This document shows positions 32,150 to 64,000 of a stretch of 64,000 nt of DNA, piece by piece. Position numbers and translations under genes: made by a program. How positions within the stretch are numbered: the stretch's first letter is position 1; each line of letters starts with the position of its first letter. The notes under the pieces are model-generated. The model saw only the letters and a program-made list of their open reading frames with translations, was not told the origin of the DNA and made no database searches. The stretch lies in the NCBI RefSeq assembly GCF_057098645.1, contig NZ_CM169472.1; one strand, 5' to 3'.

Positions 32150-32314
32150 TCGAGTTCCACCTTCTTATTCATAAGGCGGGACACTTTCAGGATTTTGAAT
32201 TTATTCAATTTTTTCCTTTCTCCAAAATCTCTCCAAAACGTTTCCCCAAAACTAGGCCACGCATTTTACAACACTTTTTCCTGAGATGGTGACGGATATT
32301 CCATATGGTGTTTG

Positions 32315-33433
32315 TCAAATAACCAACTTAACCCATTCCTGACCTCGAGTATCGTTATAGCGATCGGTGGTTGCCTGGACTTTATGTCCTAGTAATGTTT
32401 TTGTATCGATACCCTGTGCACGGTACAGCCGTTCTGATAGAGAGCGTTGTTCATGAAATGTTGGCGGAGTTTTTCCTGCTGGTGGAATTACCCCAGCCAG
32501 ATCCCGTGCTTTGGCAAAGTAGTCGCTCAGGTTGTCTTTACTCATCGGCTTCGGTTGTTTCTGGTGCCGACTATGGATTAGATATGGACTTAATATTCTG
32601 TCTCGGCACCCATCAATAACTTCTTTTAACGTTATCCCAATGGCATCACAGCGTAGTGTAAGCGGTAACGCCAGACGCATTCCGGTTTTTCCCTGGGTGA
32701 TATGCAAGTGTTCGTTCCACACATCTGAAAAACGCATGTGGCAAATGTCATCACGGCGCTGACCAGTAACAATCGCAAGAAGCATTGCGTTACGGATAAA
32801 GTGTTTTTCAGGCGTTGCGTTGTAAATTTTTTGCCAGTCTTCCAGGGTGAGCCTGGCTCTAGTTACTTTAGGGATCGGTTTACGGGTAGCCTCCGGAGGA
32901 TTCCATCCAGGAGGAACTTCCCCTGCATGCTGTGCTTCTTTATAAATATCAACCCATAATCCACGATTTACTCTCGCTGTGCTGACCATGTCTTTATCCA
33001 GCCACTCATCCAGTATTAATGCAAAGTCTCTTACTTCCAGTTCTTTCAATGGGTGGTTTCCCAGACGGGAAACCAGGTATGCAGCCATTCGGGCTTTTTC
33101 TTTGTGAGTTGTAGCTGCAATATCTCCATTTTTCAGTCGCGTGTCCTGTATTTTCAGATATCGATCAACCCATGCCTTTAATCTGATACCCCGACGCTTT
33201 GTTGCTGACGGACTTTCATCAATTTTGCGCATGAAATATTCAGCCTCTGCTGCAGCTATTCGCTGATTGGCTGTGGAAGCGATTTTTTCTGCCTTACCTT
33301 TGTCTGTTCCGAGCCCGTGAAATTTTCCAGTCACAGGGTTTTTATACTGGTAGTAAACTCTGCCAGTTCTGCGATCAAATTTTTCGTAAAGTCCGGCTAC
33401 GTCAGTGCTGTTTTTTCGTGGCCTCGGTGACAT
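32315..33433 (-). CDS. int: phage tyrosine integrase (lambda Int family)
   Basis: 372-aa ORF; C-terminal catalytic domain with R..H.R..Y arrangement ending ...TTDRYNDTRGQEWVKLVI, similar to lambda Int; adjacent to the prophage/chromosome junction. Confidence 0.9.
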   Translation of the reverse strand: MSPRPRKNSTDVAGLYEKFDRRTGRVYYQYKNPVTGKFHGLGTDKGKAEKIASTANQRIAAAEAEYFMRKIDESPSATKRRGIRLKAWVDRYLKIQDTRLKNGDIAATTHKEKARMAAYLVSRLGNHPLKELEVRDFALILDEWLDKDMVSTARVNRGLWVDIYKEAQHAGEVPPGWNPPEATRKPIPKVTRARLTLEDWQKIYNATPEKHFIRNAMLLAIVTGQRRDDICHMRFSDVWNEHLHITQGKTGMRLALPLTLRCDAIGITLKEVIDGCRDRILSPYLIHSRHQKQPKPMSKDNLSDYFAKARDLAGVIPPAGKTPPTFHEQRSLSERLYRAQGIDTKTLLGHKVQATTDRYNDTRGQEWVKLVI

Positions 33434-33680
33434 GAGTTAAAATCTCCTTCAGTGCATCATCATCGCCAGTATGAATTTCCGGCGCAATTCCTGTTTCACC
33501 AGGTCCAACAAATACTGCTCGGCGATCTATCAGCCAACGCCCACGAATTTTTTGTGGTCTTGGAACGATGTATCCTAGTTTTCCGTATTTCACCAGGGTA
33601 GTGTTTGTTATTGGGAGACTGAACCGTTTTGGCTTCCACTCATCGAGCGTTATCAGGTACTGTTCGCTCATGGCTATCAC
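33402..33680 (-). CDS. xis: excisionase-like protein
   Basis: 92-aa ORF immediately upstream of and overlapping int; basic and Trp-rich like Xis family; assignment by position and composition. Confidence 0.55.
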   Translation of the reverse strand: MIAMSEQYLITLDEWKPKRFSLPITNTTLVKYGKLGYIVPRPQKIRGRWLIDRRAVFVGPGETGIAPEIHTGDDDALKEILTHVTEATKKQH

Positions 33681-33732
33681 TCCGGAACGCGCCAGTTGCA
33701 GAATACCAACGACAACTGGCGACGGTTGAACA

Positions 33733-63163: not shown

Positions 63164-63486
63164 CGGCATTACTGACACTGGAAGAGATCAAGGCACATCT
63201 GCGTGTCGACCATGACGCGGATGATGACATGCTGATGGACAAGGTTCGTCAGGCTACCGCCGTGCTGCTGGCCTACATTCAGGGCAGCCGGGATAAGGTG
63301 ATTCGTGAGGACGGTGAACTGATCCCGGGCGAGGCATTAACCCGGATGAAGGGGGCTGCCATGCGACTGACCGGGATGCTGTACCGGAATCCGGATCTTG
63401 CGGAGCGGGAAGAACTGATTCAGGGGGAGCTGCCGTTTTCTGTGTCCGTGCTGATTTACGATTTGCGTTGTCCGACGGTGTTATGA
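63160..63486 (+). CDS. head-tail connector (gp6-like)
   Basis: 108-aa ORF overlapping the upstream stop; size and position typical. Confidence 0.55.
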   Translation: MTALLTLEEIKAHLRVDHDADDDMLMDKVRQATAVLLAYIQGSRDKVIREDGELIPGEALTRMKGAAMRLTGMLYRNPDLAEREELIQGELPFSVSVLIYDLRCPTVL

Positions 63487-63496
63487 GGAGGGAGGA

Positions 63497-63847
63497 ATGG
63501 CAATATCTGCAGGTCGTCTGACACAGATGATAAGTGTTCTGAAGCCGGTGTTAACCCGTAATGCTGCCGGAGAAATGACGGAAGAATGGGGGTCATGCGG
63601 GAAAATTCATGCGGATATCCGTGGCAGGAGCAGCCGGGAGCGGATGCAGTCCGGTGCGGAAATGGCGCAGGCGGAAATCCGCATCTGGGTGCGCGGTCAG
63701 TCCGGCCGGGAAATCACGGCAGCGTCACGACTTCATGTGCTGAGTGGTCCATGGCGTGACCGGATCCTGAACGTTGTCGGGCTGCCCGTGCCGGATGCGA
63801 CCGGCGGGCGTCTGGAAATTCTCTGTCGGCTGGGAGGGGAAAAATGA
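63497..63847 (+). CDS. head-closure / head-tail joining protein
   Basis: 116-aa ORF in head-completion position. Confidence 0.55.
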   Translation: MAISAGRLTQMISVLKPVLTRNAAGEMTEEWGSCGKIHADIRGRSSRERMQSGAEMAQAEIRIWVRGQSGREITAASRLHVLSGPWRDRILNVVGLPVPDATGGRLEILCRLGGEK

Positions 63848-64000
63848 TCGAAACCCTGCTGGATTTTTCGGGGCTGGAGGACATCAGCCGCGATTTGCAG
63901 CTTCTGAGTGGTGCGGAAAATAACCGGGTGCTGCGTGAGGCAACCCGTGCGGGTGCGAATGTGCTGAAAGAAGAAGTGGTGTCACGGGCACCGGTACGCA
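63844..64000 (+). CDS. phage morphogenesis protein, 5' part (continues beyond window)
   Basis: ORF MIETLLDFSGLEDISRDLQLLSGAENNRVLREATRAGANVLKEEVVSRAPVR... with ATGA overlap to the previous gene. Confidence 0.5.
   Translation, partial: MIETLLDFSGLEDISRDLQLLSGAENNRVLREATRAGANVLKEEVVSRAPVR

Follow-up and report, generated by a model that had tools for sequence, protein, structure and literature searches.

A probably defective lambdoid prophage of the Sakai Sp6/'PP_potB' type at the 3' end of potB

The DNA analyzed here, referred to as the window, is a stretch of 64,000 nt from contig NZ_CM169472.1 (assembly GCF_057098645.1), and all coordinates are those of this stretch. We conclude, with a probability of roughly 0.93, that the window covers about 32 kb, including the int-proximal end, of a lambdoid prophage of the Sakai Sp6/'PP_potB' type, which is integrated into the 3' end of potB in a chromosome with a Shiga toxin-producing Escherichia coli (STEC) O145:H28 backbone and whose lytic growth is probably abolished. 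Both the prophage type and its site have been described previously. The insertion site of Sp6 is listed as potC/potB (PMC8190617), and 'PP_potB' has been described in O157:H7 clade 8 (PMC9997748) and in O145:H28 (PMC7067040), in both cases with frequent replacement and deletion noted at the locus. The element in the window is a new mosaic copy. As one of several variable prophage loci in O145:H28 and O157:H7, potB is useful for strain typing.

According to the mechanism that we propose from the junctions, a lambda-type integrase would have acted on the 12-bp core CCTTCTTATTCA, recombining the copy in the phage attachment site (attP) with an identical one among the final codons of potB. The potC side keeps the last seven potB codons and the ribosome-binding site of potC. 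On the far side, which is seen in relatives only, the phage arm would provide six new codons and a stop, resulting in a complete PotB protein of 287 aa. As the entire prophage lies between the potA promoter and the genes potC and potD (potCD), transcription of potCD would come from phage DNA or depend on a weak local promoter.

The potC-int junction and the fate of PotB

The genes at the junction, potD, potC, int, and xis, are all located on the minus strand. The features of this region, including the open reading frames (ORFs), are as follows:

30312-31358, minus strand: potD, intact host gene; ORF, 347/348 aa identical to K-12 PotD
31355-32149, minus strand: potC, intact host gene; ORF, 264/264 aa identical to K-12 PotC
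32146-32171, minus strand: remnant of the potB 3' end, translated as ...NKKVELE with a stop overlapping the potC ATG; identical to K-12 up to 32171
32160-32171, no strand: int-proximal copy of the 12-bp attachment core CCTTCTTATTCA; the sole stretch common to the K-12 naive site, the window junction, and the distal junctions of RM13516 and Sakai
32172-32314, no strand: int-proximal attachment (att) arm; contains a tandem array of three TCTCCAAAA-like sequences, candidate arm-type sites
32315-33433, minus strand: lambda-type tyrosine integrase, intact, 372 aa; Pfam Arm-DNA-bind_1 and Phage_integrase, alignment to lambda Int
33402-33671, minus strand: excisionase, 89 aa; phrog_629, 89/89 aa identical to Sakai ECs_1502

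The distance from the potC start to the integrase stop amounts to exactly 165 bp (32150-32314), and the excisionase ORF overlaps that of the integrase. When the stretch from 31700 to 32700 was used as a query, the host homology of unoccupied genomes, including K-12 MG1655, ended at 32171 (query positions 1-472), and in these genomes potB was located directly beyond the end of the match. Correspondingly, the pairwise alignment with K-12 was perfect through 32171 and random beyond. The first 22 of the 165 bases therefore still belong to potB. The last seven codons and the stop of K-12 potB (NKKVELE) remain fused to potC, along with the potC Shine-Dalgarno sequence AAGGTGG. Both host genes differ from those of K-12 almost exclusively at synonymous positions: potD displayed 19 synonymous and one non-synonymous difference and potC six and none, summing up to 25 synonymous versus one non-synonymous. 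No tRNA gene was found in 30000-64000, which excludes a tRNA-targeted integration. The backbone from 8000 to 32171 matched that of STEC O145:H28 strains, RM13514 among them, at 100.0% identity and, judged by this match, is of the STEC O145:H28 type. The potB prophage of RM13514 itself is a different mosaic, in agreement with the variability of the locus reported in the literature.

The crossover point was located by comparing occupied and empty sites. The empty site of K-12 reads ...GAGTTCCA CCTTCTTATTCA GCAAACG..., the junction in the window ...GAGTTCCA CCTTCTTATTCA TAAGGCGGG..., and the far junction of the STEC O145:H28 strain RM13516 ...TTTCTGTTG CCTTCTTATTCA GCAGACG.... Naive genomes start to match this far junction exactly at the core, which occurs once in the window and is positioned within the potB codons ...N-K-K. 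In the Sakai record, the feature 'prophage Sp6; lambda-like phage' begins with the initial base of the corresponding core and extends to the core copy adjacent to potB. The two Sakai copies (6612-6623 and 6034-6045 of two extracted Sakai loci) are not identical. The int-proximal one, CCTTTTTATTCA, differs by a single substitution from CCTTCTTATTCA as present in the window and in the distal Sakai copy. This could be a mutation acquired after integration, or else the trace of a mismatch between attP and the bacterial site (attB) that would be useful for mapping the overlap region.

Within the int-proximal arm, tandem repeats resembling TCTCCAAAA are found at 32217-32227, 32228-32238, and 32241-32251. 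The whole 64-kb window contains nine matches to this motif, three of them inside these 35 bp, and a related motif is also present in the distal arm of RM13516. We consider the tandem repeats candidates for arm-type binding sites of the integrase. In the phage collection, two matching records, vB_EcoS-640R1 (ON470612.1) and vB_EcoS-813R8 (ON470619.1), share the int-xis module and were rejected as independent attP sequences. Both contain host potC and potD along with ymfA and ycfZ, and these GenBank 'phage' records represent predicted prophages including flanking host DNA rather than packaged genomes. They were the sole hits when the phage collection was searched for a free phage genome with an uninterrupted attP.

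The integrase matched PF09003 at residues 1-64 (7e-21) and PF00589 at residues 194-363 (1e-17). A phmmer comparison with lambda Int structures yielded E=4.6e-54 over residues 26-371, and in the alignment to 1z1b the motifs TGQR, KTG, HExRS, and LGHK as well as the tyrosine line up (R, K, H-x-x-R, H, and Y conserved). The residue numbering of the catalytic R-K-H-R-H-Y set in lambda Int is well established. The protein is identical to Sp6 Int of Sakai at 370 of its 372 residues. Asadulghani et al. 2009 (PMC2669165) demonstrated that Sp6 excises spontaneously and forms circles, and that marked Sp6 is transferred to K-12, with integration at the same locus. As both Int and Xis are intact, excision of the copy in the window remains plausible.

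In relatives that span the far junction, potB is annotated as intact with a size of 864 bp (287 aa; RM13516, Sakai, STEC383, and FDAARGOS_1059), compared to 858 bp (285 aa) in K-12. The K-12 protein ends in ...SRLLNKK-VELE. The corresponding end is ...NKK-ATEIDN in RM13516 and Sakai, ...NKK-VSDIDN in STEC383, and ...NKK-ATEIDD in FDAARGOS_1059. Three diverged phage arms hence provide six codons and a stop at the same position, consistent with selection for an open potB. The conserved tail suggests that the phage is under selection to keep the host transporter working, a textbook-style case of a phage repairing the gene into which it inserts. The tail-coding stretches are located at 47579-47599 of the RM13516 locus extract and at 2515-2535 and 2692-2712 of the extracts of two further relatives.

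The crossover also had an effect on the potC side. The A of the phage arm and the TG of the core form an ATG, which opens a mini-ORF (MNKKVELE followed by a stop; 32146-32171, minus strand) whose stop overlaps the start codon of potC in precisely the way seen for the potB stop of K-12. Judged from this arrangement, the mini-ORF might keep translational coupling to potC.

The first-pass annotation of the window had described potD and potC as intact, with the 165 bp upstream of potC leading into a lambda-type integrase and excisionase instead of potB, and had placed the attachment junction at 32150-32315 and the other end of the prophage outside the window. All of this agrees with the coordinates given above: the exact crossover core lies at 32160-32171, as defined by the alignment against the unoccupied K-12 site that the annotation had proposed and by the far junction of RM13516, and the prophage runs past base 64000. 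That annotation had also offered two conjectures, an insertion in the 3' end of potB and a replacement C-terminus of PotB supplied by the phage. The former is confirmed by the potB codons that remain with potC; the latter is supported in every relative examined (287 aa, with ATEIDN, VSDIDN, or ATEIDD in place of VELE), the far junction of this copy lying beyond base 64000.

Lesions of this copy and alternative readings

Lesions were defined by comparison with the potB prophage of RM13516/RM12761, which is the closest among the relatives found (84% of 32150-57000 covered at 99.3% identity). They comprise two insertion sequence (IS) elements and two damaged phage genes:

39620-42258, plus strand: IS21-family (ISSso4-like) element with istA and istB; NF033546 and NF038214, name taken from relatives; missing in RM13516
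47125-48434, minus strand: IS3-family (IS629-like) element, 1310 bp; NF033516, ALIL pseudoknot (Rfam)
48435-48593, plus strand: remnant of the late antiterminator gene Q, last 52 codons; translation equals the C-terminus of RM13516 Q
60417-63163, plus strand: portal gene; relative to Sakai and RM13516, one base is missing from a G-run at about 61761-61766, so that the gene falls into two ORFs

The IS21-family element (2.64 kb) is flanked by a 6-bp target duplication, ACAGGA, and is located inside a ydaT/cII-like gene between dicC and the replication gene O. The IS629-like element occupies the position of approximately 2.65 kb in RM13516 (16278-18928 of the locus extract), comprising a DUF968 gene, rusA, and the first 662 of the 822 bp of Q. 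No other Q-type gene was found between P and the lysis genes. The element lacks a target duplication, and the five bases at its left edge, CTGCG (47120-47124), are unmatched in RM13516. The sequence of both edges (47120-47124 and 48434-48435) is consistent with an IS-mediated adjacent deletion or a recombination between two IS copies, more so than with a simple insertion. These two elements, the loss of Q, and the portal frameshift had gone unmentioned in the first-pass annotation, whose reading of the modules otherwise holds.

Taken together, the sequence indicates that this copy is probably defective for lytic growth, because the IS21-family element interrupts the early rightward operon upstream of O and P, because the IS629-like element has replaced rusA and most of Q, and because the portal gene is frameshifted. 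Late genes would not run without Q. Transfer, if it takes place at all, would depend on co-resident lambdoid phages, by analogy with other defective prophages of enterohemorrhagic E. coli (EHEC).

Three other explanations were weighed against this reading. That the potC-int junction represents an assembly join or a chimera and not a biological insertion would fit with the single junction visible in the window, the second one lying beyond base 64000. Such an artefact is, however, effectively ruled out, since the identical junction, covering the whole stretch from 31700 to 32700, recurs in 1600 of 5426 complete E. coli genomes from many laboratories. Moreover, the breakpoint coincides with a 12-bp core that is found again at the distal junction of relatives, and an intact int-xis pair follows directly in the canonical position. 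The naive-site alignment displays a clean site-specific junction and not an assembly join, and potB does not adjoin potC, so that neither of the two observations named in the first-pass annotation as refuting an integration was made. It is also very unlikely that the prophage is complete and inducible, its lesions being either tolerated or artefacts. Int, Xis, the exonuclease, DicA and DicC, O, P, the lysis genes, the terminase, and the capsid protein are all full length, the portal frameshift amounts to a single base in a G-run, and Sp6, although defective, is still transferable with the help of co-resident prophages (PMC2669165). Such a state is nevertheless difficult to reconcile with a Q gene reduced to its last 52 codons, no other Q-type gene being present between P and the lysis genes, and with the splitting of the gene between dicC and O by 2.64 kb of IS21-family sequence; the tail genes lie beyond the window.

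More serious, though still unlikely in our view, is a loss of spermidine/putrescine uptake, in which potCD, cut off from the potA promoter, would be silent, and the intact reading frame of PotB would be incidental. The prophage does separate potCD from that promoter, and the sole internal promoter of potABCD that we found in the literature maps between potA and potB (PMC3946193), so that the prophage separates it from potC. Scans of 31900-34000 and 32000-39700 revealed no sigma-70 consensus promoter between int and potC, neither in the 165 bp upstream of potC nor in the int-xis region, and a DicA-type repressor presides over the leftward phage operon. Silencing is argued against by the absence of any decay in potCD, with PotC and PotD conserved as listed above and the 25:1 ratio of synonymous to non-synonymous differences. 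Likewise, the ribosome-binding site of potC is kept, and the six-codon PotB tail and stop maintained by three divergent phage arms argue for selection maintaining the transporter. Read-through from int into potC is possible because the same scans detected no terminator between the two genes. The most economical idea, based on the arrangement of this region, would be that potCD are transcribed from phage DNA, either by int read-through or from a weak promoter in the arm; by eye, a weak candidate (TCACCA-18-TAAAAT) is discernible between int and potC. Elements of this type physically interrupt potABCD in about 29% of complete E. coli genomes, yet potCD show no decay, and the transcription of these genes there seems not to have been addressed: our literature search on potCD expression in lysogens found nothing. 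We regard it as quite doubtful that, in this prophage type, transcription originating from the phage, by read-through of int or from an att-arm promoter, controls the membrane and periplasmic halves of the spermidine/putrescine importer. If it did, polyamine uptake would depend on the prophage state in about 29% of E. coli genomes.

Several observations weigh against our interpretation of the element as a defective Sp6/'PP_potB'-type prophage. Since the portal frameshift falls within a homopolymer run, it could have arisen from a sequencing error. O and P may still be expressed, given that outward promoters can be present on IS21 elements. No sigma-70 consensus promoter from which potCD could be expressed was found between int and potC. 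This exact mosaic occurred in no complete genome of the collection, the best match being the one at 84% coverage and 99.3% identity. Finally, the far junction, potB, and potA are located outside the window, and the replacement C-terminus and the total size of the prophage are deduced from relatives.

Comparison with related elements

Sp6 of strain Sakai (NC_002695.2, 1541611-1590033) shares with the prophage in the window the insertion point in the 3' end of potB, the int-proximal arm, the nearly identical Int and the identical Xis, and the layout of terS, terL, the protease-capsid gene, and the portal gene; the six-codon replacement at the end of PotB is the same in related genomes. In contrast, the immunity region of Sp6 is of the ECs_1506/ydaS type, whereas the window contains Qin-like DicA, DicC, DicF, and DicB. 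The exonuclease is truncated in Sp6 but full length in the window, and the holins differ. Furthermore, Sp6 keeps Q, while the window copy has lost it and carries the IS21-family and IS629-like lesions, and the int-proximal core of Sp6 is one base off, as described above.

The RM13516/RM12761 prophage resembles that of the window in its Qin-like immunity region, O and P, the NanS-type esterase, and the lysis and head genes. Conversely, RM13516 has lesions of its own in two genes that are intact in the window, the Rha/Ash gene, which contains an IS3-family element, and int, which has an internal stop, but keeps the DUF968-rusA-Q segment and an in-frame portal gene and lacks the IS21-family element. 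Type III secretion system effector cargo (nleL/espX7, espN, and espK) is located at the distal end in Sakai, RM13516, and RM13514; the window covers the prophage only up to base 64000.

The immunity region corresponds to that of Qin, a cryptic prophage of K-12, in gene order and orientation, with dicC divergent from dicA, followed by ydfA/B/C, DicF, and dicB. Qin occupies another chromosomal site, and the window differs in a Rha/Ash-type gene and C4/isrK-like RNAs between DicF and dicB.

Phage 21 and e14 integrate into the 3' end of icd. They provide a parallel to the potB prophage in combining a lambda-type integrase and a core inside the 3' end of a protein-coding gene with a phage-carried substitute 3' end that keeps the gene open. 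They differ in the target gene and the core sequence; in addition, the potB site is located in the middle of an operon, displacing potCD from their promoter, which is not the case at icd. A member of the Sakai prophages, Sp8, also has icd as its integration site (PMC8190617).

Compared with lambda itself, the integrase has the same arm-binding and catalytic domains with conserved catalytic residues, int adjoins the attachment site with xis upstream, and the three tandem candidate arm sites of the int-proximal arm resemble lambda P'1-P'3 in position. Int is clearly homologous but divergent, the core and arm motifs show no sequence relationship to those of lambda, and attB is intragenic here, while that of lambda is intergenic.

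Remaining modules of the prophage

The other features identified in the prophage, including the small RNA (sRNA) DicF, are:

33733-36204, minus strand: ExoVIII-type recombination exonuclease, full length, 823 aa; phrog_2082 over 1-823
36486-36674, minus strand: dicB; NF049927, 133.7 bits versus a cut-off of 100
36685-37539, minus strand: Rha/Ash-type regulator ORF; phrog_995
37723-37774, minus strand: DicF sRNA; Rfam RF00039, 76.7 bits versus a gathering score of 48
38854-39261, minus strand: dicA-type repressor gene, full length; NF007257, 241.6 bits versus a cut-off of 101
39338-39565, plus strand: dicC-type Cro-like regulator gene; NF007282, 167.6 bits versus a cut-off of 130
42717-44211, plus strand: O-like initiator (to 43757) and P-like helicase loader (43750-44211); phrog_1032 and phrog_109, coordinates transferred from the RM13516 annotation
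46497-46820, plus strand: hok/sok-type toxin-antitoxin locus; Rfam sok at 46497-46667, hokD annotated at the RM13516 equivalent
49764-51614, plus strand: SASA-family carbohydrate esterase, an accessory (moron) gene; annotation in relatives, named 9-O-acetyl-N-acetylneuraminic acid deacetylase in Sakai
51907-54228, plus strand: lysis cassette with holin, lysozyme, and Rz-like spanin
55330-58204, plus strand: HNH endonuclease, small terminase (terS), and large terminase (terL); phrog_589, phrog_641, phrog_7622, and phrog_9
58268-60205, plus strand: fused prohead protease and HK97-family major capsid protein, 645 aa; Pfam Peptidase_S78 (48-153) and Phage_capsid (386-635), phrog_617
63160-63847, plus strand: head-tail adaptor and head-closure genes; phrog_40 and phrog_25; the prophage extends beyond base 64000

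The profile matches bear out the Qin-like dicB/dicF/dicA/dicC region, the O/P-like replication genes, and the phage-21-type lysis cassette recognized in the first-pass annotation: DicB, DicA, and DicC scored above their NCBIfam cut-offs and DicF above the Rfam gathering score, the O-like initiator and the P-like helicase loader were identified by their phrog matches, and the cassette combines a PF04971 class II holin, a PF00959 lysozyme, and Rz. The HK97-type head module named there stands with respect to the families (S78 protease, HK97 capsid, portal, and HNH next to the terminase) but not to the gene order, since the fused protease-capsid gene precedes the portal gene.

In the lysis cassette, the P21-S-type holin (51907-52113) matched PF04971, 'Bacteriophage P21 holin S', at 2e-32 over model positions 1-63 of 64. 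The GH24 lysozyme (52801-53334) starts with a Gly/Ala-rich hydrophobic stretch resembling a signal-anchor-release (SAR) domain, and an E35-D44-T50 spacing can be read from its sequence; it may be a SAR-type endolysin comparable to R21. The Rz-like spanin is located within 53605-54228 (phrog_13). The 3' part of the portal gene contains a 162-bp (54-codon) tandem repeat in 4.3 copies (61994-62694), and the copy number seems to differ between relatives. The portal protein has a length of 805 aa in RM13516 and 833 aa as annotated in Sakai, the PHROG profile comprises 859 positions, and the window version would reach about 915 aa if the frame were restored.

The leftward arm contains ydfC/B/A homologues between DicF and dicA, and a Ren-like protein is encoded in the rightward arm, as is the ydaT/cII-like gene. 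A C4-like RNA (37300-37387) and an isrK-like RNA (37412-37488) were detected by Rfam in the upstream part of the Rha/Ash-type ORF, the latter framed by a 10/12 sigma-70 promoter (37523-37495) and a terminator (37434-37417). By this layout, the region looks like a P1/Gifsy-type antirepressor control module inside the Qin-like dicF-dicB operon. A PADLOC scan of the accessory ORFs for defense genes gave only a weak HNH similarity. Downstream of the Q remnant, Rfam places STnc100 (49365-49554, plus strand) directly next to the anti-GcvB sRNA AgvB (49555-49616, minus strand), and the expression context of both may be altered by the deletion in Q.

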